A DNA stretch of 64,000 nt from Alphaproteobacteria bacterium (GTDB lineage Bacteria; Pseudomonadota; Alphaproteobacteria; Rickettsiales; 21-14-0-20-44-7). The stretch covers positions 49,297 to 113,296 of the forward strand of contig JAYVPI010000011.1 in NCBI GenBank assembly GCA_043757405.1. The letters run 5' to 3'. Of this stretch, positions 16,405 through 54,706 are shown piece by piece (within the stretch, counting starts at the first letter, position 1; each line of letters begins with the position of its first letter). The position numbers and the translations under genes were made by a program. Under the pieces are notes generated by a model. That model ran no database searches and was not told where the DNA came from. It saw only the letters and a list, made by a program, of their open reading frames with translations.

Positions 16405-16481
16405 TGGTGGGCGGTTAGGGATTCGAACCCCAGACCCTCTCGGTGTAAACGAGATGCTCTAACCAGCTGAGCTAACCGCCC
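16405..16481 (-). tRNA. tRNA-Val (anticodon UAC), CCA encoded
   Basis: Hand-folded cloverleaf: acceptor GGGCGGT/ACCGCCC, D-arm GCTC..GAGC, anticodon arm TCTCG-TTTACAC-CGAGA, T-arm TGGGG-TTCGAAT-CCCTA, 3' ACCA. Confidence 0.95.
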
Positions 16482-19953: not shown

Positions 19954-20316
19954 ATGAGCTATTTGATCGCCCGAGCCTATGCCGAAACCCCAACAGCCGC
20001 GCCTGTAAAGACGGAAAGCGCCCTGGATGCCATGCAATTCATGCCATTTGTCTTTATTTTCGTGGTATTTTATTTCCTCATTTTGCGCCCGCAACAAAGG
20101 AAGTTTAAACAGCACCAAGCAATGGTTTCCGCAATTAAACGCGGGGATAAAGTTGTTACTTCCGGCGGTATTTTGGGCAAAGTGGCGCGTGTTGATGAGG
20201 GCGGCATTATCCAGGTCGAAATCGCCGATGGCGTTGTGGTGAAAACTATGGCGGCGACAATTACTACCGTAGTTGATGACAAAGCATTGAATGATAATTC
20301 AGCGGCGAAAAAATAA
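19954..20316 (+). CDS. yajC: Preprotein translocase subunit YajC
   Basis: FMPFVFIFVVFYFLILRPQQRKFKQHQAMVSAIKRGDKVVTSGGILGKV is the YajC signature. The start is uncertain (19921, 19930 or 19954). Confidence 0.85.
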   Translation: MSYLIARAYAETPTAAPVKTESALDAMQFMPFVFIFVVFYFLILRPQQRKFKQHQAMVSAIKRGDKVVTSGGILGKVARVDEGGIIQVEIADGVVVKTMAATITTVVDDKALNDNSAAKK

Positions 20317-20654
20317 TGGCAAATATCGGCACAACCTTATTCACAATTTTCCGCGGTAAAAAAACCGGCGCTGATGAATTTGGTAATCGATATTACATGA
20401 ACGCAAAAAAGAGCCGCCGTTGGGTGATTTATAAAGGCATCGCCGAGGCTTCCAAAGTTCCGGCGGAGTGGCATCGCTGGTTGCACAAGACCACGGACGA
20501 AGTTCCGCAAAATCTCAAAACCCACGCCTGGGAAAAACCGCATTTGCCGAATCTGACTGGCACTGATAATGCATATGTGCCGAAGGGCCATGTTAAATCT
20601 GGCACGAAGCGGAACAAGGCTACGGGTGATTATCAGGCCTGGAAGCCTGAGTAG
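20316..20654 (+). CDS. NADH:ubiquinone oxidoreductase subunit NDUFA12-family protein
   Basis: 112 aa. GADEFGNRYY...RRWVIYKG...VPAEWHRWLHKTTDEVP matches the NDUFA12 family. Confidence 0.85.
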   Translation: MANIGTTLFTIFRGKKTGADEFGNRYYMNAKKSRRWVIYKGIAEASKVPAEWHRWLHKTTDEVPQNLKTHAWEKPHLPNLTGTDNAYVPKGHVKSGTKRNKATGDYQAWKPE

Positions 20655-29565: not shown

Positions 29566-30345
29566 TTATTTTTTATGCGCCGCAAAAATCTCCTGCAGGC
29601 CCAATATCGTCAAATCCGGCTCGATTTTTTCGATTGCCTTAGTCGATTCGCCGAACATCGGCGCCAGGCCGCCGGTGGCGATTACTACGGGTTTGGTTTT
29701 CATCTCGGCTTTGATGCGGGCGGTGATGCCTTCGATTAGGCCGATATAGCCCCAATAAATGCCGCTTTGCATGGCTTCCTTGGTGTTGGTGGCGATGGCG
29801 CGTTTTGGTTTTTTGATCCAAACGCGCGGCAGCATCGCGGCGGCTTCCTGTAATGCGGATAATGATAGATTGATGCCGGGCGAAATTACGCCGCCGCGGT
29901 AATCGCCTTTTTCATCGACGACATCGAAAGTGGTGGCGGTGCCGAAATCGATGATGATGGCGGCTTTGTTGTACAATTTTTTGGCGGCCACTGCATTGAC
30001 GACGCGGTCGGCGCCAATTTCGGAAGGGTTGTCGATTTTGATTTTGACGGAATATTTGATGTTCTCGCCAACGACTAATGGTTTCACGCGGAAGAAATTG
30101 GCGCATAGTTTGTTGATCGCGATCATGATCTGCGGCACGACCGAGGCGATGATGATATTGCGGATGTCTTTTTTATTAATCCCTTCATCCTGCATCAAAA
30201 GCCCCAAAATGGCCGCATATTCATCACCAGTACGGTGATGGTCAGTTTGCAAACGCCACTTGGCTTTAATCTTCGCGCCGTCAAAAACCGCGAAATTGAT
30301 ATTGGTGTTGCCAGCATCGATGGCGAGTAAGTAATTATTGGGCAT
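29566..30345 (-). CDS. coaX: Type III pantothenate kinase
   Basis: LLAIDAGNTNINFAVF and DFGTATTFD motifs. The track's N-terminal 17 aa are a translation of repeat 30361-30450, so the ATG at 30345 is used. Confidence 0.9.
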   Translation of the reverse strand: MPNNYLLAIDAGNTNINFAVFDGAKIKAKWRLQTDHHRTGDEYAAILGLLMQDEGINKKDIRNIIIASVVPQIMIAINKLCANFFRVKPLVVGENIKYSVKIKIDNPSEIGADRVVNAVAAKKLYNKAAIIIDFGTATTFDVVDEKGDYRGGVISPGINLSLSALQEAAAMLPRVWIKKPKRAIATNTKEAMQSGIYWGYIGLIEGITARIKAEMKTKPVVIATGGLAPMFGESTKAIEKIEPDLTILGLQEIFAAHKK

Positions 30346-30360
30346 ACACACTCCAATATT

Positions 30361-30450
30361 TGTCATTCTCGGGCTTGACCCGAGAATCCAAGTCACTTGC
30401 TCTGACTTGGTATGTGACCCTGGATCCTCGGGTCAAGCCCGAGGATGACA
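30361..30450. repeat. Palindromic element, type A
   Basis: tgtcattctcgggcttgacccgagaatcca ... tggatcctcgggtcaagcccgaggatgaca. Fills the birA-coaX spacer. Confidence 0.85.
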
Positions 30451-30461
30451 ATATAAGCAGA

Positions 30462-31199
30462 TTAAATGGCATGGACTTCTCCGGAGGAAATAATCCTTTC
30501 GCCTTCATTGGTTTCCAAAACCAGCTCGCCGGTAGAAGTCAGTCCTTTGAAAATTCCCTCAACGTGTTTTTCTTCGAGATTAGCAACGATTTTTTCACCC
30601 AAACCGCTGGCGTTTTTGAGCCATAACGCGCTAATTTTGCCGAAACCGTCTTCCAACCAGATGTCGTAATACTTGCTAAAATCTTCCAGTAATTTGTCTT
30701 TTATCTTGCCAAAGTTTTCTTTATTGCCGAGCTTTTTCATGTTGGTGGCATAATCAGGAGATTTTTTGACGTTAATGCCAAATCCGACGATCAGATAATC
30801 CAAACGATCAGGTTTGCTGGACGCTGATTCAAGTAATATCCCGGCGATTTTTTTGCCATCAGCGAGGACATCATTCGGCCATTTTAGCCGCACCTCGGTA
30901 TCGGGGAGGTTTATTTGGATTGCTTCCAACGCCGCGAGAGAGGCGACGAATGAAACTTGATGCGCGGTGCGGACATCAAGATTGCGGATGAGGATGGAGA
31001 GATAGATATTTCCTTCCGGGGATTCCCAGCTGCGGGAATATCGGCCTTTGCCGCGGGTTTGCTTTTTGGCAGTGACGACGGTGAAGTTGGCGGCGCGTTT
31101 TTCAGCTAGTTTACGCAGCTCATCATTGGTGCTTTCCAGTTCATCATATTCAAGTATTTCCATCTTCCTTAGAATAGACCGGAAACGGCGGAATAACAA
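30462..31199 (-). CDS. birA: Biotin--[acetyl-CoA-carboxylase] ligase
   Basis: 245 aa with the QTRGKGRYSRSWESPEGNIYLS biotin-binding motif. No N-terminal HTH domain. Confidence 0.88.
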   Translation of the reverse strand: MLFRRFRSILRKMEILEYDELESTNDELRKLAEKRAANFTVVTAKKQTRGKGRYSRSWESPEGNIYLSILIRNLDVRTAHQVSFVASLAALEAIQINLPDTEVRLKWPNDVLADGKKIAGILLESASSKPDRLDYLIVGFGINVKKSPDYATNMKKLGNKENFGKIKDKLLEDFSKYYDIWLEDGFGKISALWLKNASGLGEKIVANLEEKHVEGIFKGLTSTGELVLETNEGERIISSGEVHAI

Positions 31200-32623: not shown

Positions 32624-34086
32624 CTTTGGGTTTGGCCAATTAGGTTTTCAACAGTTGCGCGGGTCAATTCAAAAATACTTTCCGGATAAACCCCGAATAT
32701 TATCACCAGGATAGCAAGAACTCCCAGGCTTAAAAATTCTGTCCCGTTCAAATCCTGCATCTTTGCCGATTCTTCGTTCAACTCGCCGAACATTACGCGG
32801 CGGTATAGCCATAACATATATGCCGCGCCAAGGATAACCCCGGTAGCGGACAAGGCGGCGACAATTTTATTGACCTGGAATATAGCCATAAAGGTCAGGA
32901 ACTCGCCGACGAAACCGGAAGTTGCCGGTAGTCCCACTGAGCCCATTGTGAAGACCATGAACACCAACGCATATTTCGGCATCTTGTGCGCAAGGCCGGA
33001 GAAACGGCCGATTTCGCGGGTGTGCATGCGCTCATATACTACACCGACACAGAGGAAAAGGGCGCCGGAAACCAAGCCGTGTGAAATCATCTGGAATAAT
33101 GCGCCGTCGATTCCCTGTTGGGTGAAGGTGAAAATCGCCAATGTTACGAAACCCATATGCGCGACGGAGGAATAAGCGATCAGTTTTTTCATATCTTCCT
33201 GTACCAGCGCGACCAGCGATGTATAAATGATAGCGATAATGCTGAGTGAATAAACCAGCGGGGTGAAGACATAACTGGCATCGGGAAGCATCGGCAACGA
33301 GAAGCGGAGGAATCCGTATGCGCCGAGTTTTAGCAAAACACCGGCTAATATCACCGAACCGGCGGTTGGTGCCTGCACGTGTGCATCGGGCAACCACGTA
33401 TGCAGCGGCCACATCGGAACTTTGACGGCGAAGGAGGCGAATAAAGCCAGCCACAGCCAGATTTGTTCCTGAACCCCAAGATATGGCATGCGCTCGATCA
33501 GAACCGGGATAGAGGTTGTGTGGGTGTAGCCATACATGTAGATCAATGCCACCAGCAGCAATACCGAACCGGCGAGTGTGTAGAGGAAAAATTTGAACGC
33601 GGCATAAATCCGGTTTTGTCCGCCCCATACGCCGATGATCAAGAACATTGGGATCAATACGCCCTCGAAGAAGAGATAGAATAATACCGCATCTAATGAT
33701 GCGAATACGCCGATGATAATTCCTTCCATCACCAAAAAGGCGATCATATATTCTTTCAAACGCTCGGTGATATGTGCGCTGGCAAGTATGCAAAGCGGCA
33801 TCAGGAAAGTAGTGAGCATAATCATCACCAGCGAAATTCCATCGACGCCGAGATAATAATTTATATTATAACCGCGCACCCATTGATATTTTTCGACGAA
33901 TTGGAAATCGGCAATGCCAGCATCAAAAAACTTCCACATCAATAGTGAAATCATGAAATTAAGGAAAGTCGTTGCCAGCGCAATATTACGAATAGTCTTC
34001 GCCCCCGGCTGGCGCATGGTAAACAGCACCGCCGCCGCAAGGATGGGCAGGAAAATCAGGATTGATAGTAGCGGCAGGTTCATCAT
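32620..34086 (-). CDS. nuoM: NADH-quinone oxidoreductase subunit M
   Basis: Antiporter-like subunit ([19 protein letters not shown]). The ATGATG at 34086 is used; the track's upstream 16 aa are translated from repeat 34103-34171. Confidence 0.9.
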
Positions 34087-34102
34087 TTCGCCACCTCGCT
34101 CT

Positions 34103-34171
34103 TCATAGCGACGCGGCAATCCAGGTTCGCGCACTCCGTCCCTGGATTGCTTCGCTTTGCTTGCAATGACG
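34103..34171. repeat. Palindromic element, type B (gtcatWgcga...gcaatccagg...cctggattgc...gcaatgac)
   Basis: Nested inverted repeats. It lies exactly between the nuoL stop and the nuoM start, flanked by the 9-bp direct repeat catcatttc (34081-34089 and 34188-34196). Confidence 0.85.
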
Positions 34172-34189
34172 ATTGTGTAAAATTATCCA

Positions 34190-36103
34190 TCATTTCCTGA
34201 ATATAAAGATACTGCTTAAGACGGCCAGCGCCAAAATCATCACCAAAGAATATTGGTAAATAAATCCGGTCTGGAATGCTTTCAAACGCGCACCGAAACG
34301 GCTGGAAATATTTGCGGCGCCGTTAGGCATTCCGTCAACCAGCTTCACATCAACTTCGCGCCAGAAGAAATTGGCGATTTTGAATGTCGGGCGGACAAAT
34401 ACGGCGTTATAGATTTCATCAATATACCATTTGTTCAAGCTCGCCAGGTATAATGGCTTAAGGGCTTTAGCTAAACTTTCGGCAATTGATAATTTCCAGA
34501 TATAAATCACCGCCGCGATCACGCCCATCGTTACTACACCCGGCACAATCCATTCCGGCGGGTGGATATGTTCTAAGGCTGGATTGCCAGGCAGTGCACC
34601 ATACCAGAAGCCGGCATTGGGCGATAATACATGCAGGATTTCTTCGCCATACCAGCCTGAGAATATCGCGCCTAGCGACAATATAATCAGCGGAATCATC
34701 ATAGTAGGCGGCGATTCATGCGCATGGTCGAATGTATGATGGTCAGCACGCGTCTGTCCGTGGAATGTGAGGAACAGCAGGCGGAATGAATAAAATGAAG
34801 TCAGCAACGCGGTAATAGCGCCCATTATGAATGCGAATTGCGCAGTTTCAGTATGGCCATTATATGCCATGCCGAGGATTGCTTCTTTGGAATAATATCC
34901 GGCCAGGAACGGAATCCCGGTAATCGCCAATGTGCCAATCCAGAACAATGCATATGTCAGCGGAATCTTCTTCCACAACCCGCCCATTTTGCGAATATCC
35001 TGTTCGTGATGCATTGCGTGAATCACCGAGCCAGCGCCGAGGAATAATAAGGCTTTGAAAAATGCGTGAGTGGCGAGGTGGAATATACCGGCTTGATAAG
35101 CCGACAAACCGCAGGCAAAAACCATATAGCCTAGTTGAGAGCAGGTGGAATATGCGATTACTTTTTTGATATCATTTTGCGTAAGCGCAATTGTCGCCGC
35201 AAATATCGCGGTGAATGCACCAACTACAGTTACGATTTCACGCGCGGTTAATGAGAGTTCAAATAATGGCGAGCAGCGGGCGATCATGAATACGCCGGCG
35301 GTTACCATTGTTGCGGCGTGGATGAGTGCAGAAACCGGGGTAGGGCCTTCCATTGCGTCAGGGAGCCATGTATGCAGTCCAAATTGCGCGCTTTTGCCGC
35401 AAGCGCCGATGAAGAGGAGGATACAGGCCAGCGTAATGGCGTTAATGTCATAGCCAAGGATATTCCAGGTTATTTTGCTATTCGCGGTGGCGGCGGAGAA
35501 AACATCGTGGAAATTTACCGAGCCAAAAAGCAGGAATATTGCGGCGATACCGAGAATGAAACCGAAATCGCCGATGCGGTTGACGACAAATGCTTTAATC
35601 GCGGCGGCATTGGCGGAATCTTTGTAGAACCAAAAACCGATGAGCAAATATGAACATAAGCCCACGCCTTCCCAGCCGACGAACAATTGGATGAAATTAT
35701 CGGCAGTAACCAGGATCAACATGAAGAACGTGAACAGCGAAAGATAGGCCATGAAGCGCTGCTTGTGCGGATCTTCGTCCATATAACCGATCGAGTATAA
35801 ATGTACTAATGAGGAAACGCCGGTTACCACCACCAGCATCACGGCGGTTAATGGGTCGATCAATATCGACCAATTGGCTTTGAAATCACCAGAGTAAATC
35901 CATTTTACCAATGTCACATGTTGCGGATGCTGCAGAATTGCGACGTTGTTGAACATATAAAGTGATGCGATGGCCGCCACGAACAACAAGCCGGTAGTCA
36001 CTACTTGCGCCAGCCTGGCGCTGATAATTTGCGTCTGCAACCCGGTGAACACGGCTCCCAGTAACGGCGCAAATAATATGATTTTGGCTAGGATCAATTC
36101 CAT
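34190..36103 (-). CDS. nuoL: NADH-quinone oxidoreductase subunit L
   Basis: Antiporter-like subunit with a C-terminal lateral helix region. The ATG at 36103 is used; the track's first 19 aa are translated from repeat 36115-36193. Confidence 0.9.
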   Translation of the reverse strand: MELILAKIILFAPLLGAVFTGLQTQIISARLAQVVTTGLLFVAAIASLYMFNNVAILQHPQHVTLVKWIYSGDFKANWSILIDPLTAVMLVVVTGVSSLVHLYSIGYMDEDPHKQRFMAYLSLFTFFMLILVTADNFIQLFVGWEGVGLCSYLLIGFWFYKDSANAAAIKAFVVNRIGDFGFILGIAAIFLLFGSVNFHDVFSAATANSKITWNILGYDINAITLACILLFIGACGKSAQFGLHTWLPDAMEGPTPVSALIHAATMVTAGVFMIARCSPLFELSLTAREIVTVVGAFTAIFAATIALTQNDIKKVIAYSTCSQLGYMVFACGLSAYQAGIFHLATHAFFKALLFLGAGSVIHAMHHEQDIRKMGGLWKKIPLTYALFWIGTLAITGIPFLAGYYSKEAILGMAYNGHTETAQFAFIMGAITALLTSFYSFRLLFLTFHGQTRADHHTFDHAHESPPTMMIPLIILSLGAIFSGWYGEEILHVLSPNAGFWYGALPGNPALEHIHPPEWIVPGVVTMGVIAAVIYIWKLSIAESLAKALKPLYLASLNKWYIDEIYNAVFVRPTFKIANFFWREVDVKLVDGMPNGAANISSRFGARLKAFQTGFIYQYSLVMILALAVLSSIFIFRK

Positions 36104-36114
36104 TCTCCCAAGTT

Positions 36115-36193
36115 TGTCATCCTCGGGCTTGACCCGGGGATCCAGGGCCGTACACTCCACAAGCTCTGGATTCCCGCCTGCGCGGGGATGACA
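36115..36193. repeat. Palindromic element, A/variant hybrid
   Basis: tgtcatcctcgggcttgacccggggatcc ... ctggattcccgcctgcgcggggatgaca. Flanked by a perfect 21-bp direct repeat (36076-36096 and 36204-36224). Confidence 0.85.
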
Positions 36194-36221
36194 TGGTTAG
36201 TGGATATGATTTTGGCTAGGA

Positions 36222-36872
36222 TCATTCTTGCGGCACTCCGTTTTCGGTTTCAGTTCCGGTGCTTTCTTCGTCTATCTCATTACTAAACTCATCCCGGTCT
36301 TCGTCGATGAACTGGTATGAAGTCACCAGGTTTTTGAACGCCGGATAAACTTTTTTCGCCTCTTTCTCATTACGCGCGTTCAAAGTGATGATGGAAATGG
36401 TCTCGTCCTGGAGGATATAAGCGATTTCTTCCATATTTCCGGATTTGTCATCTTTCAATTTTTTGACCAATGCCAGCGCACCATCTTTGGTAAACAAGTT
36501 GGTGTCGTCATAAACTTTTACATTCGAGTTGATATCCTGGTAGCTGGCAATATCCTCATCAATGATTTTTTGCACGCTGCCGTTGATGCGGTCGGATGTG
36601 CGCAAATACAGCACAGCCGGAGAATTCTGCCACGAACCACCTTTAGGATAAAACACGATTGATACACCTTGCGCCACGCCGGATTGGTTATCCGCAACCC
36701 ACCCGCTCGGCGGATCGATCTTGATATGGCCCGGCGGCGTATATACCGGAACCACCGCCGGTTTCGGCATTTCCTTACGCTCCGGAACTTGATCCGGCCC
36801 GGACTTTGGCGCCGCAGCGAGTGCGGGGGCGGAGGATAATATGAGTAATAAAACTAAAAAATATTTCTTCAT
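36222..36872 (-). CDS. Secreted protein of unknown function embedded in the nuo operon
   Basis: 216 aa with signal peptide MKKYFLVLLLILSSAPALAA and an acidic C-terminal tail. Shares a GW(V/F)ADN motif with the upstream 177-aa ORF. Confidence 0.6.
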   Translation of the reverse strand: MKKYFLVLLLILSSAPALAAAPKSGPDQVPERKEMPKPAVVPVYTPPGHIKIDPPSGWVADNQSGVAQGVSIVFYPKGGSWQNSPAVLYLRTSDRINGSVQKIIDEDIASYQDINSNVKVYDDTNLFTKDGALALVKKLKDDKSGNMEEIAYILQDETISIITLNARNEKEAKKVYPAFKNLVTSYQFIDEDRDEFSNEIDEESTGTETENGVPQE

Positions 36873-37405
36873 TATTTTGACTCATATTTTGCTGATTGAA
36901 GTATTGGCATAATTTCCGATGAATTATTTTTATAGGTAGTTTCAATTACCATAACCCAAGCCTCTTTATTCGAGCTGATTGGGTATAAGAAAACCATAAC
37001 TCGTTCAGGCGAATCTTTTATGCCCATGAAACAATACGTCACGTTTCCCATAGGGGCGGCTATGTCAGTTTTCTGGGGGATTTGTTTATAGCATCCTTTT
37101 GATGGGGAAGAATCATAAGAAGCGATGGTGATAAATTCCTTTTCCTCGTTTCCCTTTTTTAAAAGAAAAGCTTGCCGGGCAAGGTCTGGAGAAACCGAGT
37201 ATTTTTTCATTAATTCATTTTGTACCGTATTATCAGCGAACCAATTACCGGAGGCTTGCAAGGAAAAACTGCTGCCATCATTAAAGTGAACAACCGCTTT
37301 ATTATCCTTTTGTATTTGCGCCCAAGCAACAAACCCAACTCCTACTACTAAAATAAAAATAGCAAGTTTAAAAAAGAACTTAAAAATACCAAAAATAAAA
37401 CCCAT
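36872..37405 (-). CDS. Membrane-anchored protein of unknown function embedded in the nuo operon
   Basis: 177 aa with an N-terminal TM anchor. GNWFADNT aligns with SGWVADNQ of the next ORF. Its stop overlaps the next start (ATGA). Confidence 0.6.
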   Translation of the reverse strand: MGFIFGIFKFFFKLAIFILVVGVGFVAWAQIQKDNKAVVHFNDGSSFSLQASGNWFADNTVQNELMKKYSVSPDLARQAFLLKKGNEEKEFITIASYDSSPSKGCYKQIPQKTDIAAPMGNVTYCFMGIKDSPERVMVFLYPISSNKEAWVMVIETTYKNNSSEIMPILQSAKYESK

Positions 37406-37408: not shown

Positions 37409-37717
37409 TTACCCCTTCAACTCACTAATATCTTCGACATGGATCGTTTTCGTGTTTCGGAAAAACGCTACTAATATCGCCAGTCCAATCGCGGCTTCGG
37501 CGGCGGCTACGGTTAATATGAAAAGTGTGAAAACCTGTCCAACCAGATCATGCAAATGCACGGAGAAGGCGACGAAATTTATGTTTACGGCGAGCAGCAT
37601 CAGCTCCACAGACATCAAAATTGTGATGATGGATTTTTTGTTGATGAATAATCCGGTGACGCCGATGACGAAGATTATTGCGGCGAGGATGAGGTAGTGA
37701 GTTAAACCTATTCCCAT
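37409..37717 (-). CDS. nuoK: NADH-quinone oxidoreductase subunit K
   Basis: 102 aa, three TM segments, [17 protein letters not shown] motif. Confidence 0.93.
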
Positions 37718-37718
37718 A

Positions 37719-37731
37719 CACCTCCCAAATT
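37719..37731 (-). promoter_or_regulatory. Conserved SD-bearing 13-mer (minus strand aatttGGGAGGTG) adjoining the type B element, upstream of nuoK
   Basis: An identical 13-mer is present at 38449-38461 upstream of nuoJ. GGGAGGTG ends 1 nt (nuoK) or 7 nt (nuoJ) before the ATG. Confidence 0.6.
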
Positions 37732-37732
37732 A

Positions 37733-37813
37733 GTCATTGCGAGGAGCGTGGCGACGCGGCAATCCAGGGTCGCAAACTCCGCGCTGGATTGCTTCGCTCG
37801 GGCTCGCAATGAC
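37733..37813. repeat. Palindromic element, type B
   Basis: gtcattgcgag...gcaatccagg...gctggattgc...ctcgcaatgac. Fills the nuoJ-nuoK junction. Confidence 0.85.
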
Positions 37814-37832
37814 GGGGCTTTTCTGATTTCCA

Positions 37833-38441
37833 TTATGACACTCCCTTGCCGGTTTCGACTTTGACAATTTCCAGCGTATCGCGGCGTTTGCGGTTGACCT
37901 GGGTGTTGATTTTCTGCTTGCGCATACGCTCGCGTGGATAGAAGCAGAGGACGATGGCGCCGATCATCGCTACTAACAGGATCATTCCGGAAATTTGGAA
38001 GGCGAAAGCGTAATCAGTATAAATTACTTGGCCGAGCGCGGCTGTATTGGTGACGCCGGTTTTGATTGGTTGCGACAGGCGAAACGGCATGGCGGCGACT
38101 TTGTCCATTTGTGTGAAAAGAATCACCATTTGTGTCAGCAAAAAAGTAGCGATGACAAATCCGGCATGCGAATATTTCGTCAACCCGCGGCGGAAAGTTT
38201 CTACTTCGACATTGAGCATCATCACCACGAATAGGAATAGAACGGCAACCGCGCCGACATAAACGATTATCAGTAACATGGCCAGGAACTCGGCGCCAAG
38301 CATGATGAAGAGTGCGGCAGCGTTGAAAAAAGCGAGGATCAGGAATAGTACCGAATGTACGGGGTTGCGTAACGTTACTACCATCAGCGCGGAGCTGACG
38401 AGGATGAAACCGAAAGCATAAAACATGATAGCGGCAATCAT
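37833..38441 (-). CDS. nuoJ: NADH-quinone oxidoreductase subunit J
   Basis: 202 aa. NPVHSVLFLILAFFNAAALFIMLGAEFLAMLLIIVYVGAVAVLFLFVVMM is the NuoJ signature. Confidence 0.93.
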   Translation of the reverse strand: MIAAIMFYAFGFILVSSALMVVTLRNPVHSVLFLILAFFNAAALFIMLGAEFLAMLLIIVYVGAVAVLFLFVVMMLNVEVETFRRGLTKYSHAGFVIATFLLTQMVILFTQMDKVAAMPFRLSQPIKTGVTNTAALGQVIYTDYAFAFQISGMILLVAMIGAIVLCFYPRERMRKQKINTQVNRKRRDTLEIVKVETGKGVS

Positions 38442-38448
38442 ATTTTAC

Positions 38449-38461
38449 CACCTCCCAAATT
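38449..38461 (-). promoter_or_regulatory. Conserved SD-bearing 13-mer adjoining the type B element, upstream of nuoJ
   Basis: The plus strand reads cacctcccaaatt, identical to 37719-37731. Confidence 0.6.
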
Positions 38462-38462
38462 T

Positions 38463-38537
38463 GTCATTGCGAGCCCGCGCAAAGCAATCCAGCGCGGAGT
38501 TTGCAATCCTGGATTGCCGCGCTTCGCTCGCAATGAC
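38463..38537. repeat. Palindromic element, type B
   Basis: gtcattgcgagc...gcaatccagcg...cctggattgc...ctcgcaatgac. Fills the nuoI-nuoJ junction. Confidence 0.85.
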
Positions 38538-38556
38538 GGGGCTTTGTGATTGGCGA

Positions 38557-39042
38557 TCATCTGAACTTTGCCCTCTCGATCAAGTTGGCGGCGATTTCCT
38601 TTTCCCAGCGGTCACCATTGGAAAGTAGCTTGTCCTTGTCATAGAACAATTCCTCGCGCGTATAAGTCGCAAACTCAAAATTCGGCCCCTCGACAATCGC
38701 ATCAACCGGGCAGGCTTCCTCGCAATAACCGCAATAGATGCATTTGGTCATGTCGATATCATATTTCGTGGTGCGCCGCGAACCATCCTCGCGTACATCC
38801 GCCTCAATCGTAATCGCCTGCGCCGGACAAATCGCCTCGCAAAGCTTACAGGCAATGCACCGCTCTTCACCGTTAGGATAACGCCGCAGCACATGCTCAC
38901 CACGGAAACGCGGGGAAAGCGGGCCTTTTTCGTATGGGTAGTTCAGAGTTACCGAGGGCTGGAAAAAGAAATATTTCAGCGTTTTGCAGAATCCGGCAAC
39001 GATTTCCAAAAGTAGCAGCGATGTGATTTTGAATCTATTCAC
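38557..39042 (-). CDS. nuoI: NADH-quinone oxidoreductase subunit I
   Basis: 161 aa with two 4Fe-4S ferredoxin motifs ([24 protein letters not shown]). Confidence 0.95.
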
Positions 39043-40288
39043 TTGGCGGATTAGCTCCTAATATTGCTTCTACGATAGAATCGTTATTCTGATATTTTTT
39101 TACCATAGCATCAACTTCATTCAAACTATGGCAATATTTATAAACCTGTTCCCTTTGGTCCTTATCACTGTCCTTTGCTCGATTTGTATCATTACGAGGA
39201 TCAATATAATTCCGGCAATTGTTTAAATCATCGATAAAGATAGAAACCTCTTTTGGGTATTGAGTAGTTTTTTCGGTACTATCCGGCAACCAGCCAAAAT
39301 AAACCAGAACCCCAGCCACCGCAACCACACCGAGCAGCGACAGTGGCAAAAACACCTTCCAACCCAATCGCATCAACTGGTCATAGCGGTAGCGCGGCAA
39401 AGTGGCGCGGGCCCAGATGAAGATGAAGAGGCAGGCGACAATCTTTAGCGCGAACCAGATTGGGCCGGGGATGAAGGAGAGGCTCGCCATTGGGGGCAGC
39501 CAGCCGCCGAGGAATAATATCGTGGCATTGGCGCTCATCAGGATCATGTTCATATATTCGCCGAGGAAAAACATGGCGAAAATCATCGAGGAATATTCGA
39601 CATTGTAACCGGAAACCAGCTCGGCTTCGGCTTCCGGGAGGTCAAATGGGTGGCGGTTGGTTTCGGCGAGGATCGAGATAAAAAAGATGACGAACATCGG
39701 GAAAAGCGGGATGATATACCACATGCCTTTCTGCGCGTTGACTATTGCGGAAAGGTTCAACGACCCCGCGCAAAGCAAAACGGTGATGATGACCAGTCCA
39801 ATCGAAACCTCATAAGAAACCATCTGCGCCGCCGAGCGGATGGCGCCGAGGAACGGGTATTTGGAGTTGGAAGCCCAGCCGGCGATGATGATGCCGTAAA
39901 CCCCAAGCGACGAAATCGCCAGCAAATACAACACGCCGACATTGATATCGGCCAGCACCAGCCCCGCCCCAAACGGAATCACCGCCCAGCCAGCCATCGC
40001 CAGCGTAAACGTAATCACCGGCGCTAACACAAACAGCACCTTGTTGGATTCGGTGGGCAAAATCAACTCCTTAGACATCAACTTCACCCCATCCGCAAAC
40101 GGCTGCAACAGGCCGAACGGCCCAACGACATTAGGGCCTTTCCGCATCTGCATCGCGGCAATGACCTTACGCTCCATCAGCGTCAGGTAAGCCATGGCAA
40201 TGATCAGCGGCAAAATAATCAGCACAATCCGCCCAAGGATTTTCAGGAGAGGGTAGAGGTATTCATTGTATGCAGCAGCCCAATCCAT
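39035..40288 (-). CDS. nuoH: NADH-quinone oxidoreductase subunit H with a ~75-aa hydrophilic C-terminal extension
   Basis: 417 aa. The canonical NuoH sequence runs to ...VLVYFGWLP. It is followed by [13 protein letters not shown]...ILGANPPSE, which has no TM segments. Confidence 0.9.
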
Positions 40289-40641
40289 TATTTGGCCTCC
40301 GTCATAGCGCTAGGATTCTCAAAATAATTATAAATTGAAATAGAATTCAAAATTATATTCTGAATAAGGAAAAAAACTCCTAAAATAATTAAAAATATAA
40401 GAATAATTTTATCTCTAGGCGTAACTGGTACTTCCTCATTTACTTTGTCGTTTTTATATAATTTACCTTTTTTTAGAAGATTTAAATAATACATATTAGC
40501 TAGTCCAGCAAAGGCTAAAGCGGTCATACCAAATGTATCATGTTTAATTTTATAATAGATTAGTACAGTTTGAAGAATGTACATAAAAATAAGCATTGTC
40601 GCATAAATATAAGCATACAATTTATAATACCGTTCGCTCAC
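40288..40641 (-). CDS. Small membrane protein embedded between nuoG and nuoH
   Basis: 117 aa, GTG start preceded by GAGGAGG, 3-4 hydrophobic segments, very AT-rich. The stop overlaps the nuoH start. Confidence 0.5.
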
Positions 40642-40661: not shown

Positions 40662-40738
40662 GTCATTCCCGCGAAGGCGGGAATCTAGGGCTTGTGAGAT
40701 CGCGACCCTGGATCCTCGGGTCAAGCCCGAGGATGACA
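40662..40738. repeat. Palindromic element (variant left module gtcattcccgcgaaggcgggaatc, type A right module)
   Basis: Read directly from the sequence. It ends ggatcctcgggtcaagcccgaggatgaca. Confidence 0.8.
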
Positions 40739-40740
40739 CT

Positions 40741-40768
40741 GAACTCTGAACTCTGAACTCTGAACTCT
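40741..40768. repeat. Perfect heptamer tandem array (gaactct)x4
   Basis: Four exact 7-nt units lie immediately after the nuoG stop codon. Confidence 0.9.
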
Positions 40769-40771
40769 GAA

Positions 40772-42793
40772 TCACGCCTCCTCCTTACCCGTCGAAGCAA
40801 CCATCTCCATACACTGCGCCATCGTGCGCGAGTTGCGGGAGATTGGGTCGGTCATGTAGAAGTTTTGGATTGGGTAGGTGAAAGGTTGATTGCCGATTGC
40901 CGATTGCCGAATTGAGGCGCCCCAGCTCCATTTGGCTGGAGTAATAACGTCTAATTTTGCAAAATGGGGGGCTTCTTTGAATAATTCGGTGCGCAATTCT
41001 TCCAATGTATTGAAGGGGAGAGTTTTGCCCGCAATTTCAGAAAGGGCGCGGATGATTTTCCAATCTTCTCGAGCCTCGCCCGGCGGGAAGGCGGCTTGTT
41101 TGGTGTGTTGCACGCGGCCTTCGAGGTTTAAATAAATTCCGTCCTTTTCGGTATACGCCACGCCCGGCAGCACAACATCGGCGGCATGCGCACCTTTGTC
41201 GCCGTGATGGCCCTGGTAGATGATGAATGCGCTTTTGTATTTGCTCAAATCGGTTTCGTCGGCGCTGAGGAGGTAGAGTAATTTATGATTGCCGATTGCC
41301 GATTGCCGATTGGAAGTGAAGCCCAGATCCAAACCGGCAACGCGCGAGGCGGCGGTGTGGAGGATGTTGAAACCGTTCCAGTTTTCGGTGTCTTGGATCA
41401 GGTTATATTTTTCGGCGATTAATTTCGCGCTGGATAGAATCGCGGCGCTATCCGGGCGGGTGAGGGCGGCATTGCCGATTATCAGCATCGGTTTTTTGGC
41501 ACCGGCGAAAAACTTTTTCACGGCATCGCTGGTGATTAATTCCGGGGATTCGCCCAAGTGTTGGTATTTATAATTAAGGTCTGTTTCCTCACCGATATTG
41601 GCAATTTTCAAACCACCGCGCAGGAAAGTTTTGCGGATGCGGTGGTTGACCAGCGGCGCTTCCCAACGCGGGTTGGTGCCGATTAATAACAATGCATCAG
41701 CTTGTTCGATTCCGGCAATTGTGGTGTTGAATAAATATGCGCCGCGATTGCCGGTGTCGAGATGCGCTTCATCCTGGCGGCATTCGAGGTTTTCGCATTT
41801 CAAGCTGTTGAATAATTTTTTCGCTGCGAACATGGTTTCCGCATCCACCTGGTCACCGGCAATCACCGCCATTTCCTCACCTTTCAACTTCGACATTTTC
41901 TTGGCGATCGCATTGAACGCCTCATCCCAGTTCACAGGTTGCAGTTTACCGTTCACCCGTAAATAAGGCCGGTCGAGGCGCTGTACTTTTAAACCGTCAC
42001 AAGCGTGGCGGGTTTTGTCGGAAATCCATTCCTCGTTAATGTCATCATGGTTGCGCGGTAAAATCCGCATCACCTCATTGCCGCGCGTATCAATGCGGAT
42101 ATTGCTGCCGACCGCGTCCATTACATCAATACTTTCAGTTTTTTTCAACTCCCAGGGGCGGCCTTTGAATGCGTATGGTTTTGAGGTAAGTGCGCCAACC
42201 GGGCATAAATCAACTACGTTAGCTGATAATTCAGAGGTCAGGGATTTTTCCAGATATGAGGTGATTTCCATATGTTCGCCGCGGTTCAACGCGCCCATTT
42301 CTTCGATTCCGGCGACGTCGTCAGTAAAGCGGATACAGCGCGTGCAATGAATACAGCGCGTCATTTCGGTTTTCACCAATGGCCCCATATATTTTTCCGG
42401 CACGGCGCGTTTTGCCTCAGGATAACGCGATCCGGCACGGCCAAAATACATTGATTGGTCTTGCAAATCACATTCGCCGCCCTGGTCGCAAATCGGGCAA
42501 TCAAGCGGGTGGTTGATGAGGAGGAATTCCATCACGCCCTCACGCGCTTTTTTCACCATCGGCGAATTGGTCTTCACCACCATCCCTTCCGCCACCGGCA
42601 GCGCGCAGGAAGCTTGCGGCTTCGGCGGCCCGGGCGAGACTTCCACCAGGCACATCCGGCAGTTGCCCGCAATGGCAAGCCGCTCATGATAACAAAACCG
42701 CGGAATTTCCACGCCGAGCTGCTCACAAGCTTGGATCAGCACAGTGCCTGCTTCGACTTCGATCTGTTTATCATCGATGGTAAGTTTGACCAT
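40772..42793 (-). CDS. nuoG: NADH-quinone oxidoreductase subunit G
   Basis: 673 aa. N-terminal 2Fe-2S and 4Fe-4S Cys clusters (CYHERLAIAGNCRMC, CPICDQGGEC, CIHCTRC) and a molybdopterin-like domain. Contains two in-frame heptamer arrays. Confidence 0.95.
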   Translation of the reverse strand: MVKLTIDDKQIEVEAGTVLIQACEQLGVEIPRFCYHERLAIAGNCRMCLVEVSPGPPKPQASCALPVAEGMVVKTNSPMVKKAREGVMEFLLINHPLDCPICDQGGECDLQDQSMYFGRAGSRYPEAKRAVPEKYMGPLVKTEMTRCIHCTRCIRFTDDVAGIEEMGALNRGEHMEITSYLEKSLTSELSANVVDLCPVGALTSKPYAFKGRPWELKKTESIDVMDAVGSNIRIDTRGNEVMRILPRNHDDINEEWISDKTRHACDGLKVQRLDRPYLRVNGKLQPVNWDEAFNAIAKKMSKLKGEEMAVIAGDQVDAETMFAAKKLFNSLKCENLECRQDEAHLDTGNRGAYLFNTTIAGIEQADALLLIGTNPRWEAPLVNHRIRKTFLRGGLKIANIGEETDLNYKYQHLGESPELITSDAVKKFFAGAKKPMLIIGNAALTRPDSAAILSSAKLIAEKYNLIQDTENWNGFNILHTAASRVAGLDLGFTSNRQSAIGNHKLLYLLSADETDLSKYKSAFIIYQGHHGDKGAHAADVVLPGVAYTEKDGIYLNLEGRVQHTKQAAFPPGEAREDWKIIRALSEIAGKTLPFNTLEELRTELFKEAPHFAKLDVITPAKWSWGASIRQSAIGNQPFTYPIQNFYMTDPISRNSRTMAQCMEMVASTGKEEA
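40887..40910. repeat. Intragenic heptamer array (gattgcc)x3 in nuoG, copy 1
   Basis: tgattgccgattgccgattgccga is identical to 41286-41309 and encodes IRQSAIGNQ. Confidence 0.9.
41286..41309. repeat. Intragenic heptamer array (gattgcc)x3 in nuoG, copy 2
   Basis: The same 24-mer lies 399 nt (133 codons) from copy 1 and encodes NRQSAIGNH. Confidence 0.9.
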
Positions 42794-50799: not shown

Positions 50800-50817
50800 A
50801 ATTCTCTCTAGTTATCC

Positions 50818-50926
50818 GTTATCCCGGCGAAGGCAGGAAGCCAGTTGTTATAATCTCATATTATAAGTCTTATTCTTGGTCAAGGCAGGATATAGCTGGA
50901 TCCTCGGATCAAGTCCGAGGATGACA
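50818..50926. repeat. Degenerate palindromic element with AT-rich insert
   Basis: gttatcccggcgaaggcaggaagccag ... gctggatcctcggatcaagtccgaggatgaca. Confidence 0.6.
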
Positions 50927-53202: not shown

Positions 53203-53985
53203 TTATATTTTCCCTTCATCAAGCTGGCGTGAAATCAATGTCTCGAATTCATCGGAGAAATCATCAAGCCGGTTGGCGAATTTATCCAGGTCGGTCGAGA
53301 AGCGGTTATAAGCGATAACTGCCGGAATCGCCGCCACAAGCCCGATTGCAGTTGCGAAAAGCGCTTCCGCGATACCAGGGGCAACAACTGCCAGTGATAC
53401 GTTTTTGGCTGAAGCGATGGAGCTGAAAGATGCCATAATCCCCCACACCGTACCGAACAATCCAACAAATGGAGTTGCCGAGCCGACAGTGGCGAGGAAG
53501 TTAAGGCGGTTTTCCAATTCATCCAAAGCGCGGTTTTTGGCGACATGCATTACGGTAGAAATGCGGGCGCGGATTCCGTCTTTGTTATTTCCAGCCATCG
53601 CAGTCGGGCCGCTTTTCTGCAATTCTTCCATTCCGGCGACGAAAACATCAGCCATCGGATGGCTCATATTACGGCCTTTTTGTTTTTCGTATAATTGCTC
53701 AATCGTATTTCCCGCCCAGAAATTGGCTTCAAATCTTTGTGCCTTGAATTTTGCAGTTTTGAACTTGCCCCATTTCTCGAAAATAATCGTCCAACTCCAT
53801 ATTGACGCCACCGCCAATGATATAATCACCAGCTTGACAACGATATCCGCATTAGCGAACAAATCGATGAATGACAAGCCGTGATGCCCAACATCAGCAA
53901 CGGTTTTGCTACCCTCCAACGCTATCGAATTAACCTGCTCTACCGGAGCTGATGAAACTGTTTCTACCATATATTCTTCCCTCAA
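53203..53985 (-). CDS. tolQ: Tol-Pal system protein TolQ (MotA/TolQ/ExbB family)
   Basis: 260 aa with three TM segments and the TVGSATPFVGLFGTVWGIM motif. The track start is TTG; the alternative ATG is at 53970. Confidence 0.9.
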   Translation of the reverse strand: MREEYMVETVSSAPVEQVNSIALEGSKTVADVGHHGLSFIDLFANADIVVKLVIISLAVASIWSWTIIFEKWGKFKTAKFKAQRFEANFWAGNTIEQLYEKQKGRNMSHPMADVFVAGMEELQKSGPTAMAGNNKDGIRARISTVMHVAKNRALDELENRLNFLATVGSATPFVGLFGTVWGIMASFSSIASAKNVSLAVVAPGIAEALFATAIGLVAAIPAVIAYNRFSTDLDKFANRLDDFSDEFETLISRQLDEGKI

Positions 53986-53987
53986 TC

Positions 53988-54015
53988 TGTCATTCCCGCG
54001 CAGGCGGGAATCCAG
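53988..54015. repeat. Single palindromic module tgtcattcccgcgcaggcgggaatccag
   Basis: Self-complementary cccgc-gcag-gcggg core. A degenerate partner (ctggatccccgcgca...) lies at 54123-54137. Confidence 0.6.
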
Positions 54016-54157
54016 TGATATTAAATTTTAATTGCCGCCAGACAATTTACGATAATTTTCTTGCTTCGCAAGAAGTAAATATTCGGCGGCAACCGGCCTG
54101 CCAAACCTCCTGCCATTTTATACTGGATCCCCGCGCATTTTTGTCCCCTGACAAAAA

Positions 54158-54556: not shown

Positions 54557-54608
54557 AGGCCGAGACTGTCAGGGGTGGGGCAATATTTCAAGATAAATTA
54601 TACAAGCT

Positions 54609-54698: not shown

Positions 54699-54706
54699 TA
54701 TCGAGA

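Follow-up and report, generated by a model that had tools for sequence, protein, structure and literature searches.

Introduction

MITEs, such as the Correia elements of Neisseria, leave a short target duplication whose fixed length depends on the parent transposase (for Correia, TA), and the IS1634 group of the IS4 family consists of full insertion sequences with a DDE transposase and long direct repeats of variable length. The Rickettsia palindromic elements (RPE) described by Ogata et al. reportedly keep the reading frame and are incorporated into the host protein. REP/BIME elements are associated with RAYT (IS200/IS605-like, HUH Y1) transposases (cited in PMC11893778), and transposition of the IS200/IS605 type proceeds without target duplication. 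The Ssn-related motifs (SRM) and the Neisseria Transformation Sequence (NTS), which contains dRS3, have as their enzyme the GIY-YIG ssDNA nuclease SsnA (Nat Commun 2025, PMC11893778). Strand-specific cleavage of ssDNA immediately 5' of the motif by the cognate Ssn also characterises this system. Alphaproteobacteria such as Rickettsia, Wolbachia and Sphingomonas are reported to be rich in the SRM family, which is described as single motifs clustered near genes, with a modulating effect on transformation, and Ssn homologs of the class GIY-YIG_unchar_3 (cd10448) are often flanked by SRMs; mobility, insertion events, target duplications and translation effects are not reported in that paper (PMC11893778). 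The spread of dRS3/NTS/SRM repeats has been an open question since their discovery in Neisseria, and the 2025 Ssn paper identified the cognate ssDNA nuclease but gave no insertion mechanism (PMC11893778).

The element described here separates nuoL from an upstream gene (ORF216) in a stretch of 64 kb that was analysed as a whole (the window). It resembles the SRM/NTS system in its hairpin arms, which carry an oriented GTCAT...ATCCAG frame, and in the enrichment of the motif, but it joins two SRM types into one 77-bp MITE-like inverted pair and there is no ssn gene within the window. Like a MITE it is small, non-coding, multicopy and located inside operons, where it is co-transcribed, and it has terminal inverted repeats (GTCAT...ATGAC) and a direct target duplication. 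A short unit with conserved inverted ends was indeed found in several copies, and comparison with empty sites revealed target duplications of 21 bp at nuoL and 9-12 bp at four further sites. In contrast to MITEs, the duplications are not of fixed length (9-23 bp), the arms are modular and there are 10-18 nt of extra junction sequence; no autonomous IS with matching ends was found in the window, and we know of no parent IS with the ends of this element. Long target duplications of variable length recall the IS1634 group, but no such transposase gene or ends were seen here. REP/BIME elements are likewise inverted hairpin pairs between operon genes for which a dedicated ssDNA-specific nuclease is proposed, but their motif is unlike, their enzyme family is HUH Y1 rather than GIY-YIG, and at nuoL a duplication is present and the arms begin with GTCAT, not with a GTAG head. 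As with RPE, palindromic repeats in an alphaproteobacterium land inside coding genes without destroying them and are open to translation. Here, however, the insert is out of frame and is not translated within the host protein, duplication of the gene's 5' end together with a new start codon rescues it, and the element could be read only as a short ORF of its own.

Results

A 21-bp duplication flanks the insert

The 21-mer ATATGATTTTGGCTAGGATCA occurs twice and exactly, with a start-to-start spacing of 128 (Table 1), and all of the coordinates given in the original prediction were correct. The exact repeat is 21 bp, as the flanking bases are unlike (a/g before, a/t after), and could reach 24 bp if a 1-nt indel is allowed (GAA[T]TGATCC...). 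These are the only two matches in 64 kb with up to three mismatches, and none was found in 100 dinucleotide-preserving shuffles. Read on the minus strand, the upstream copy has the sequence ATGATCCTAGCCAAAATCATAT and, with the adjoining base, forms an ATG (36225-36223) that overlaps the TGA (36224-36222) of the 216-aa ORF; the nuoL residues ILAKII are encoded by the downstream copy. Between the two copies lie 107 bp with the inverted-repeat element, with arms at 36115-36128 and 36180-36193, and an in-frame ATG GAA TTG.

Table 1. Features of the nuoL junction and of the parallel junctions in the window.
Feature	Positions	Strand	Remarks
ORF216, secreted protein	36222..36872	-	No Pfam family; stop codon preserved by upstream repeat copy
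Upstream (5') copy of 21-bp duplication	36204..36224	-	With base 36225 gives the relic nuoL start ATG, overlapping the ORF216 stop
Bridge ORF, 43 codons	36094..36225	-	MILAKIISTNHVIPAQAGIQSLWSVRPWIPGSSPRMTNLGEWN*; begins at relic ATG, crosses the entire element and ends with a TGA overlapping TTG; only open frame of three across the insert
Insert, 107 bp, lineage-specific	36097..36203	-	10-nt 5' junction + 79-bp SRM pair + 18-nt 3' junction; missing from the junctions of three relatives
5' junction segment, 10 nt	36194..36203	-	CCACTAACCA; common to no other element copy
SRM arm Y	36166..36193	-	TGTCATCCCCGCGCAGGCGGGAATCCAG; matches published SRM consensus; 1 base off Neisseria NTS consensus CGTCATTCCCGCGMAVGCGGGAATCYRG (defined in PMC11893778) over 27 shared positions
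Spacer between SRM arms, 20 bp	36146..36165	.	Homologous to spacer of element E4 (40662-40737), by E3-E4 alignment
SRM arm X	36115..36145	+	TGTCATCCTCGGGCTTGACCCGGGGATCCAG; resembles NTSvar (CGTCATACTCGGGNNNNNCCCGAGTATC); faces arm Y, GTCAT outward on both
3' junction, 18 nt	36097..36114	-	AACTTGGGAGAATGGAAT; Shine-Dalgarno-like GGGAG 36109-36105, ATG 36103-36101, first T of TTG
Candidate present start ATG	36101..36103	-	MEL-ILAKII; start named in the original prediction; only 1 nt after GGGAG
Candidate present start TTG	36095..36097	-	GGGAG ends 7 nt before it; shares TTGA with the stop of the bridge ORF; would give MILAKII; read from sequence
Downstream (3') duplication copy	36076..36096	-	Codons 2-8 (ILAKII...) of functional nuoL; counterpart, by alignment, of the one copy that L081, L082 and L083 have
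nuoL, NADH-quinone oxidoreductase subunit L	34190..36103	-	Intact; 90% identical to nearest relative; Pfam Proton_antipo_N/M, NADH5_C
nuoI/nuoJ, type B element	38441..38560	-	Duplication ATGATCGCC / ATGATTGCC; 40-codon bridge ORF ending ATGA on new start
nuoJ/nuoK, type B element	37717..37833	-	Duplication ATGGAAATCAG / ATGGGAATAGG; 41-codon bridge ORF
nuoL/nuoM, degraded type B element	34086..34193	-	Duplication GAAATGATGGA / GAAATGATGAA; 36-codon bridge ORF ending ATGA
birA/coaX, X-X SRM pair	30345..30472	-	Ancestral overlap 11 nt; duplication ATGCCATTTAAT / ATGCCCAATAAT; 45-codon bridge ORF

A repeat of 21 bp, a common assembler k-mer length, in what appears to be an assembled NCBI contig (155,688 bp) raises the question of a k=21 graph join. 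This is very improbable: such joins collapse repeats and do not make two copies 107 bp apart, both genes are left intact and in frame, four other junctions have diverged duplications of like design, and an independent assembly (L007, see below) has a 23-bp repeat with one mismatch.

The site is empty in relatives

The three closest relatives, L081, L082 and L083, have NuoL proteins of 635, 635 and 638 aa that are 90, 88 and 79% identical, with the N-termini MILAKII, MIIAKII and MIEAKII, respectively; neither the MEL start nor a second 21-mer is found in them. All three have the same gene order, the ATGA overlap and a single 21-mer region without the element, and the L081 ortholog of ORF216 (78% identical) is at the equivalent position and ends at the matching ATGA. 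A more distant group, with 67% NuoL identity, has N-termini of equal length and also lacks the element; the best NuoL identity among the reference-genome contigs searched was at most 61%, which is too distant for an empty-site comparison. Since the relatives have one copy of the 21-mer and the ATGA overlap but no element, the 107-bp insert and its duplication are specific to the source lineage and the upstream ATG, where NuoL of the relatives begins and which overlaps the upstream TGA, is a true relic start. Both the relic start and the reading of the repeat as an insertion-associated target duplication had been predicted from the focal DNA, and the relatives bear them out. The reverse scenario, in which the element and both 21-mers are ancestral and were lost by precise recombination between the direct repeats, would recreate exactly the empty site of the relatives, but it needs several independent precise losses (in the 90, 88 and 79% relatives and the 67% group). 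In addition, none of the five junctions holds an element in the relatives, in which SRMs are very few in total, and the 21/21 identity in a largely unconstrained copy points to a recent event, so that this scenario is highly implausible.

The element is an inverted pair of SRMs

The palindrome between the copies had been anticipated, but it is not an anonymous one; its sequence consists of two Ssn-related motifs, of the Neisseria NTS/dRS3 family, in inverted orientation. Both arms, 36115-36145 (+) and 36166-36193 (-), match the published degenerate SRM consensus, HGTCWYN(0-2)YYVSBRHN(0-5)WNVSBRGN(0-2)RNCYNB (PMC11893778), which has 13 matches in the 64-kb window, for which 50 Markov shuffles gave 0.14 on average, and 2 matches in 64 kb of orthologous DNA of the relatives. 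Each arm is semi-palindromic with oriented flanks, GTCAT upstream and ATCCAG downstream, and forms a separate small hairpin in a fold that has a three-way junction and a z-score of only -2.1. The focal element (E3) has a core of ~77 bp that combines two different SRM types (Y-X). Arm types are modular among the window elements, which are X-X, Y-X or type B: arm X is also found in five other elements, E3 and E4 share a 76-77-bp core bounded exactly by GTCAT...ATGACA, and E1, E2 and E5 share X arms. The focal event belongs to a lineage-specific burst of SRM insertions.

Rfam gave no match at the element (gathering threshold over the window; E≤1 over 35950-36350), and no GIY-YIG/Ssn gene was found among the window ORFs by motif and Pfam searches, nor was a transposase gene found in the window. 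The gene strand has no promoter-like or terminator-like site in 35900-36500, which makes the element an unlikely transcription signal.

The junction sequence had been attributed to acquisition with the insertion. Of this sequence, which includes the junction segments CCACTAACCA and GGGAGAATGGAAT, only one part (AAACTTGGGAG) recurs at other element ends. The motif AAAYTTGGGAG after ATGAC is also present at the nuoJ and nuoK elements and in >120 metagenomic copies of related elements, and the focal 3' junction resembles the nuoK junction. In viral contigs, the ATGACAAAYTTGGGAG tail alone gave only chance or coding matches.

Parallel junctions and relative age

Four further junctions of the window have an element and a duplicated start region where relatives have empty sites (Table 1), and their duplications are of 9-12 bp, so that the focal duplication is the longer, as had been predicted for the type B sites. 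Their pooled mismatches amount to 8/43, and at that divergence the chance of no mismatch in 21 bp is 0.013, which argues that the focal event, whose copies are 21/21 identical, is the younger; it is a young event. An SRM pair is also found at a nuo-operon ATGA junction on an unrelated contig of a Hyphomicrobium MAG (L007), which came from the reference-genome search with NuoL, with a 23-bp duplication (22/23 matching) and a 57-codon bridge ORF. Over these sites the duplication length varies from 9 to 23 bp. The nuoG junction (element E4) was left out, as its duplication has diverged too far and a different gene now lies downstream. No flanking repeat was detectable at the other 8 SRM pairs examined, and in metagenomic copies the flanking-duplication test was at the null level, the true ends probably being further out.

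The present nuoL start and the bridge ORF

Translation of nuoL would now begin at TTG 36097 or ATG 36103, 3' of the insert-borne GGGAG. The original prediction named the ATG as the present start and an in-frame ATG does exist there, but its use is not established and the usual spacing between a Shine-Dalgarno sequence and a start codon favours the TTG, which would yield fMet-ILAKII, identical to the ancestral N-terminus. In annotation three codons compete as the nuoL start: the TTG, the ATG and also a GTG that gives a spurious 656-aa extension.

The frame of the relic ATG is open across the entire element, and SRM-type repeats are abundant in Rickettsia (PMC11893778), both of which would fit a NuoL that still starts at the old ATG with an extra N-terminal peptide coded by the element. 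The period of 128 nt (128 mod 3 = 2), however, brings the relic frame into the downstream copy out of frame, and it ends at a TGA (36096-36094) after 43 codons; the reading frame refutes a Rickettsia-type coding palindrome and leaves this explanation a negligible chance. Translational coupling across the insert may be retained via the bridge ORF. At all five window junctions the relic frame is the sole open frame through the element, and counted from the first base of the new start its stop follows after 1, 7, 1, 1 and 8 nt, while elements at sites with ancestral spacers (E7 and E8) have stops in all frames. The naive P for the bridge frames is ~0.004, a value that counts three homologous type B events as independent. 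ORFs of 36-57 codons across such elements are by-products of insertion.

Use of the GGGAG at nuoL would be a co-option. A portable built-in RBS was considered and rejected as a family-wide property, because the >120 metagenome copies (arm and tail), which are mostly from gut, have GGGAG with no start codon after it; in these copies GGGAG belongs to a long terminal inverted repeat. Nor is the Shine-Dalgarno sequence always element-borne, as the purine-rich stretch at ybgC/tolQ aligns to native sequence in relatives.

Discussion

Taken together, the data are probably best explained by a lineage-specific insertion of an SRM pair into nuoL, with a 21-bp duplication, that is younger than its siblings, created a new start and possibly preserved coupling. 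In an ancestor, ORF216 and nuoL shared an ATGA overlap, an arrangement that the closest relatives still have. The 107-bp unit inserted 21-22 nt into nuoL and the 21 bp TGATCCTAGCCAAAATCATAT were duplicated on either side of it, such that the upstream copy retains the ORF216 TGA and an orphaned ATG and the downstream copy restores the 5' end of nuoL. The duplication could have arisen by the repair of breaks staggered by 21-24 nt, or by an equivalent copy-back step, and would have been kept because both genes remain functional only where the stop/start overlap is duplicated. Ribosomes starting at the relic ATG would read the 43-codon bridge and stop at the TGA that overlaps the TTG (TTGA), and in this way the original translational coupling could be retained.

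The same outcome, a lineage-specific insertion with duplication, could have been reached by a different mechanism, in which a nascent strand switched to another element copy, possibly at the nuoK junction, copied the hairpin pair with its flank and re-primed 21 nt back by microhomology. The junction segments outside the conserved core, a GAA microhomology at the 3' junction and the variable duplication lengths (9 to 23 bp) are consistent with such a templated patch, as is the likeness of the 3' junction, ATGAC-AAACTTGGGAGA-ATGGAAT, to the nuoK junction, ATGAC-TAATTTGGGAGGTGT-ATGGGAAT, and to the ancestral nuoK start, ATGGAAAT. We consider it rather unlikely, as the core of the nuoK donor is type B and not Y-X as at nuoL, there is no identical donor copy within the window and the nuoK resemblance was noticed post hoc. 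Against the insertion scenario stand duplication lengths of 9-23 bp, unlike those of a single classical transposase, and the 10 nt and ~13 nt of junction sequence that it leaves unaccounted for.

Returning to insertion of the SRM pair with staggered breaks, the target itself could offer one source of the stagger. The 22-bp nuoL target has the form ATGAT-N10-ATCAT-AT, and opposite-strand cuts near ATGAT and ATCAT in GAATGATCCTAGCCAAAATCATATTA would account for a stagger of 21-24 nt. The targets in L007 and at ybgC/tolQ contain AATGAC, and the duplication edge is at, or at most 1 nt from, ATGA in the focal case, L007 and nuoI/J; nuoJ/K and birA/coaX have overlaps other than ATGA, and there the duplication begins at ATG. 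It is tentatively possible, though we would not call it probable, that SRM/NTS pairs are mobile in their own right, with a preference for targets resembling the ATGAC/GTCAT ends of the pairs. The hairpin pairs would then land on operon junctions because ATGA is the commonest stop/start overlap, and survivors would need a long duplication that rebuilds stop and start, the GGGAG RBS of the element and a bridge ORF, opened by the relic start, that leads ribosomes across the hairpins and preserves coupling.

For genome annotation, the locus is a warning that the nuoL start is ambiguous and that short ORFs over such elements are by-products. The nuoL locus, its four window siblings and the Hyphomicrobium case provide dated filled-versus-empty sites with exact junctions, and any insertion mechanism must explain duplications of 9-23 bp that are anchored on ATGA. 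The nuoL locus also indicates how a tightly coupled essential operon, that of complex I, can take in selfish DNA where its genes overlap, by duplication of the stop/start overlap, a possible hand-off of ribosomes via a translated bridge and a borrowed Shine-Dalgarno sequence. If SRM/NTS pairs do spread and survive in the manner outlined above, this would be the first filled-versus-empty-site evidence for the spread of dRS3/NTS-type repeats, and operons would be seen to tolerate selfish DNA by a route that is new.

The Insertion at nuoL and Empty Sites in Relatives

The 5′ end of nuoL, whose product contains Proton_antipo_N/M and NADH5_C (Pfam), lies in one copy of a perfect 21-bp direct repeat with copies 128 bp apart, and the original prediction was correct in both the coordinates and the description of this repeat (see table). 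All genes around it have the minus strand as coding strand. The downstream copy encodes residues ILAKII of NuoL, the upstream copy holds an ATG overlapping the TGA of a 216-codon ORF (ORF216), and the 107 bp separating them contain an inverted-repeat element and an in-frame ATG GAA TTG. When up to three mismatches are allowed, the 21-mer has only these two matches in the 64-kb window and none in 100 dinucleotide-preserving shuffles.

The closest NuoL among reference genomes is 61% identical, none being nearer, and relatives were found in a metagenome protein collection (P0001-P0003; NuoL 90, 88, and 79% identical) on contigs L081, L082, and L083, which are colinear with the window and have the same unusual gene order nuoJ-nuoK-ORF-ORF-nuoL, with one ORF in L083. 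In all three, the nuoL ATG is overlapped by the upstream stop (ATGA in L081 and L082, TAATG in L083), NuoL begins with MILAKII, MIIAKII, or MIEAKII, the nuoL junction lacks the element, and the 21-mer region is single (in L081 it reads TGATTCTAGCCAAAATCATAT, with one mismatch), continuing directly into TATTTGCGCC as does the window's downstream copy. This comparison of N-termini and junctions bears out the claim that the upstream copy is a genuine relic nuoL start (MILAKII), since the relatives start NuoL at the matching overlapping ATG, and a MEL start with two 21-mers was found in none of them. Because the relatives have one 21-mer and no element, the insert and duplication are new in the window's lineage; an ancestral element lost from the relatives would be unparsimonious, as several independent precise deletions are needed.

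ORF216 and its neighbor ORF177, which separate nuoK from nuoL in the complex I operon of this clade, have no Pfam family and are both of obscure function, one having a signal peptide and the other an N-terminal membrane helix. ORF216 and its L081 ortholog are 78% identical, and ORF177 has only a weak SGW(I/F)xDN stretch in common with a 205-aa L081 protein. They could be lineage-specific accessory or assembly proteins of complex I. Elsewhere in the window, genes for an NDUFA12-like complex I accessory subunit and 6S RNA (Rfam, 50.1 bits) fit an alphaproteobacterial origin.

Features of the nuoL insertion, its siblings, and other loci. Bridge stop positions are relative to the first base of the new start. 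Positions refer to the window unless a contig is named.
Feature	Position	Strand	Sequence (upstream copy / downstream copy)	Bridge stop
21-mer, ORF216/nuoL	36204-36224 / 36076-36096		ATATGATTTTGGCTAGGATCA; upstream copy, minus strand, (A)TGATCCTAGCCAAAATCATAT	+1, TTGA overlap
nuoI/nuoJ duplication			ATGATCGCC / ATGATTGCC	+1, ATGA overlap
nuoJ/nuoK duplication			ATGGAAATCAG / ATGGGAATAGG	+7
nuoL/nuoM duplication			GAAATGATGGA / GAAATGATGAA	+1, ATGA overlap
birA/coaX duplication			ATGCCATTTAAT / ATGCCCAATAAT	+8
Arm Y	36193-36166	minus	TGTCATCCCCGCGCAGGCGGGAATCCAG	
Arm X	36115-36145	plus	TGTCATCCTCGGGCTTGACCCGGGGATCCAG	
Relic ATG	36225-36223	minus		
ORF216 TGA	36224-36222	minus		
Candidate nuoL starts	ATG 36103; TTG 36097	minus		
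Bridge TGA	36096-36094	minus		
ORF216; ORF177	36222-36872; 36872-37405	minus		
ORF216/ORF177 counterparts	L081 4749-6004; L082 1232-2390; L083 5432-6001			
L007 SRM pair (region)	3118-3209 (3068-3260)		CCAAA[C/G]CGGAGGCCGCGGAATGA	
E4	40662-40737			
Heptamer tandem repeat	40738-40771		(ACTGAAC/TCTGAAC)n	
(GATTGCC)3 runs	40876-40915; 41275-41314			
nuoG-nuoH small ORFs	40288-40641; L081 1412-2100			
SRM upstream of tolB	50813-50925; L263 9631-9661			
ybgC (region)	54158-54556 (53984-54700)			
SRM elements beside ybgC	53989-54132; 54610-54697			
29-bp hairpin	62773-62801; L262 3576-3604		GTCACCCCGCACTTGTTGCGGGGTCTGG	
tRNA-Val gene	16405-16481			
Bracketed interval	10250-16451			
Tyrosine integrase	10493-11752			
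SIR2-like protein	14238-15377			
NDUFA12-like gene	20316-20654			
6S RNA gene	55419-55581			

The Element Belongs to the SRM/NTS Family

The two arms of the element face each other with GTCAT outward on both, and their sequence was traced by full-text literature search to the 2025 description of the Ssn nuclease family (PMC11893778), where the Neisseria Transformation Sequence (NTS) is CGTCATTCCCGCGMAVGCGGGAATCYRG and includes the classical dRS3 repeat, a variant (NTSvar) is CGTCATACTCGGGNNNNNCCCGAGTATC, and a degenerate Ssn-related motif (SRM) is defined. Arm Y differs from NTS by one base over 27 shared positions, and arm X resembles NTSvar, its stem having a compensatory change of A-T to C-G. 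The published SRM expression has 13 matches in the window, both arms among them, compared with 0.14 in Markov shuffles and two in ∼64 kb of orthologous DNA of the relatives, and the latter difference reveals a burst of SRM spread in the window's lineage. The focal element and E4, a further hairpin element, are copies of a single Y-X unit of 76-77 bp, with ends exactly GTCAT...ATGACA and unrelated flanks. The type B elements (GTCATTGCGAG...), located at nuoI/J, nuoJ/K, and nuoL/M, have a GTCAT...ATCCAG frame and are not caught by the published expression. The focal element is hence a member of the SRM/NTS family, and it behaves like a MITE. Rfam has nothing at the element, there is no promoter or terminator signal on the gene strand around it, and the fold of its RNA is a three-way junction whose z-score is modest (−2.1). 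No GIY-YIG gene is present in the 64-kb window, which alone is too small to judge an association with ssn.

E4, between nuoG and the next ORF, is adjoined by a heptamer tandem repeat, and the nuoG coding region has two (GATTGCC)3 runs 399 bp apart, of which at least the one nearer the 3′ end is missing from the relatives when nuoG is aligned. Between nuoG and nuoH the window has one 117-aa ORF vs. unalignable 98- and 130-aa ORFs in L081, and the region beside E4 seems to have been replaced. Upstream of tolB, the window has a full SRM pair with spacer and the closest relative a solo SRM in the same place; the site was thus occupied before the lineages split, and a second arm was then gained or one lost. 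The ybgC thioesterase gene has SRM elements on both sides, the same arrangement as the NTS-gene-NTS layout around selected genes (PMC11893778), and the YbgC C-terminus runs on into the degraded upstream arm. The window and a relative's contig have an identical SRM-type hairpin of 29 bp, at non-orthologous places. Metagenome contigs (L141-L260), many from human gut, contain ∼135-180-bp elements with long terminal inverted repeats (CTCCCAARTTTGTCATTSCGAGG...CCTCGSAATGACAAAYTTGGGAG), some in tandem arrays with periods of 154-234 bp; these are widespread outside Alphaproteobacteria and have an end motif in common with the type B elements. Separately, the tRNA-Val 3′ end is repeated directly over 58 bp (93% identical), and the two copies enclose ∼6.1 kb containing a tyrosine integrase, a weak SIR2-like protein, and several ORFs without family, which looks like a small integrated island.

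Parallel Insertions at Overlapping Genes

Alignment with the relatives' empty sites revealed four more insertions at junctions of ancestrally overlapping genes (11 nt at birA/coaX), and each duplication spans the stop/start overlap, so that both genes are intact. A purine-rich motif (GGGAGGTG twice, GAGGTG, and GGAG; GGGAG at nuoL) lies 1-10 nt before the new start and is not in the empty sites. The four sibling duplications have diverged (eight mismatches in 43 bp, pooled), and since 21/21 identity is unlikely at that rate (P = 0.013), the nuoL insertion is the youngest of the five. The focal duplication is longer than those at type B sites, as had been claimed, although the latter are 9-12 rather than 8-9 bp.

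The 21-bp duplication is unusual but not unique. In a Hyphomicrobium sp. MAG (L007; JBEBJD010000215.1), an inverted SRM pair lies at the ATGA junction of nuoJ and a small ORF, between the two copies of a 23-bp direct repeat (22/23 matching). Other Hyphomicrobiaceae have a plain ATGA junction, and L007 is an independent example of the architecture seen at nuoL. The repeat at nuoL is known from assembled sequence, not reads, and its length matches a common assembler k-mer, which could suggest an artefact; however, k-mer artefacts do not make duplications that are spaced apart and leave two reading frames intact, the sibling duplications have diverged, and L007 is an independent assembly. The 21-bp repeat is a real target duplication. 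Ten SRM pairs in all the DNA retrieved had flanks that could be used, and only these two have long flanking repeats; those of the rest are ≤9 bp, the same as the null. Hence long duplications are seen where survival needs them, which argues for variable duplication length plus selection, or for unconstrained duplications having decayed at other sites.

The nuoL Start and Bridge ORFs

The original prediction placed the present nuoL start at MEL in junction sequence; the in-frame ATG is indeed in the insert, but it is only one of two candidates. That ATG (MEL-ILAKII) is 1 nt after GGGAG, while a TTG is 7 nt after it and a start there would give fMet-ILAKII, restoring the ancestral N-terminus and length (635 aa, as in P0001 and P0002). 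The TTG is better placed because a ribosome-binding site is usually 5-9 nt from the start, and it has a slightly better than even chance of being the start in use. ATG is the stronger codon, and nuoK in the window evidently starts at an ATG 3 nt after GGAGG, making short spacing possible, so the nuoL ATG is a serious candidate at somewhat less than even chances. A 656-codon extension, starting at a GTG that lies within the element and has no ribosome-binding site, is unlikely.

The relic ATG opens a 43-codon ORF across the whole element, the stop of which overlaps the TTG as TTGA, and at all five window junctions the relic frame is the sole open frame of three across the insert. If one frame in three were open at random this has P ∼0.004, a naive value as the three type B events, being homologous, are not fully independent. 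L007 has a 57-codon equivalent from the relic to the duplicated ATGA, and a 35-codon ORF crosses E1, a further hairpin element, beginning 4 nt downstream of the RNase J stop and finishing 3 nt short of the next ATG. All frames have stops in the elements that precede tolQ and tolB; these two sites are real spacers in relatives, and the tolQ ribosome-binding site aligns to native sequence. The pattern fits translational coupling being retained by termination-reinitiation through the bridge ORF, and suggests a way for genes that overlap and are coupled to survive insertions of this kind.

Constraints on the Insertion Mechanism

Ssn cleaves single-stranded DNA a few nucleotides upstream of its motif, and it has been speculated that NTS-ssnA-NTS resembles an insertion sequence, with no insertions or duplications reported (PMC11893778). 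Any mechanism is constrained by variable duplication length (9-12, 21, and 23 bp), an edge anchored at the overlap, and end-like targets. One edge is at, or ≤1 nt from, the start/stop overlap, with nuoL/M listed at 3 nt from the ATG: the duplication begins exactly at the ATG at nuoI/J (ATGA overlap) and at nuoJ/K and birA/coaX (non-ATGA overlaps), 1 nt inside it at nuoL, and 3 nt before it at nuoL/M, and in L007 it ends exactly at ATGA. The nuoL target is ATGAT-N10-ATCAT-AT in all relatives and resembles the element's own ends, as does AATGAC at the junctions of L007 and the ybgC/tolQ site.

Within the insert, 10 nt (CCACTAACCA) and ∼13 nt (GGGAGAATGGAAT) are outside both the conserved core and the target sequence. 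AAAYTTGGGAG is found again downstream of ATGAC at the nuoJ and nuoK elements and, in >120 metagenomic copies of related elements, is part of the long terminal inverted repeat with no start codon after it, so this stretch is element-borne and any Shine-Dalgarno role at nuoL would be co-option. The focal 3′ junction, ATGAC-AAACTTGGGAGA-ATGGAAT, resembles that of nuoK, ATGAC-TAATTTGGGAGGTGT-ATGGGAAT, and the ancestral nuoK start ATGGAAAT; a nuoK-type junction could have been the source of MEL, through template switching or as a flank carried along. The finding is valuable mainly for the exact insertion junctions of this repeat family, and for the bridge ORFs that recur at them.
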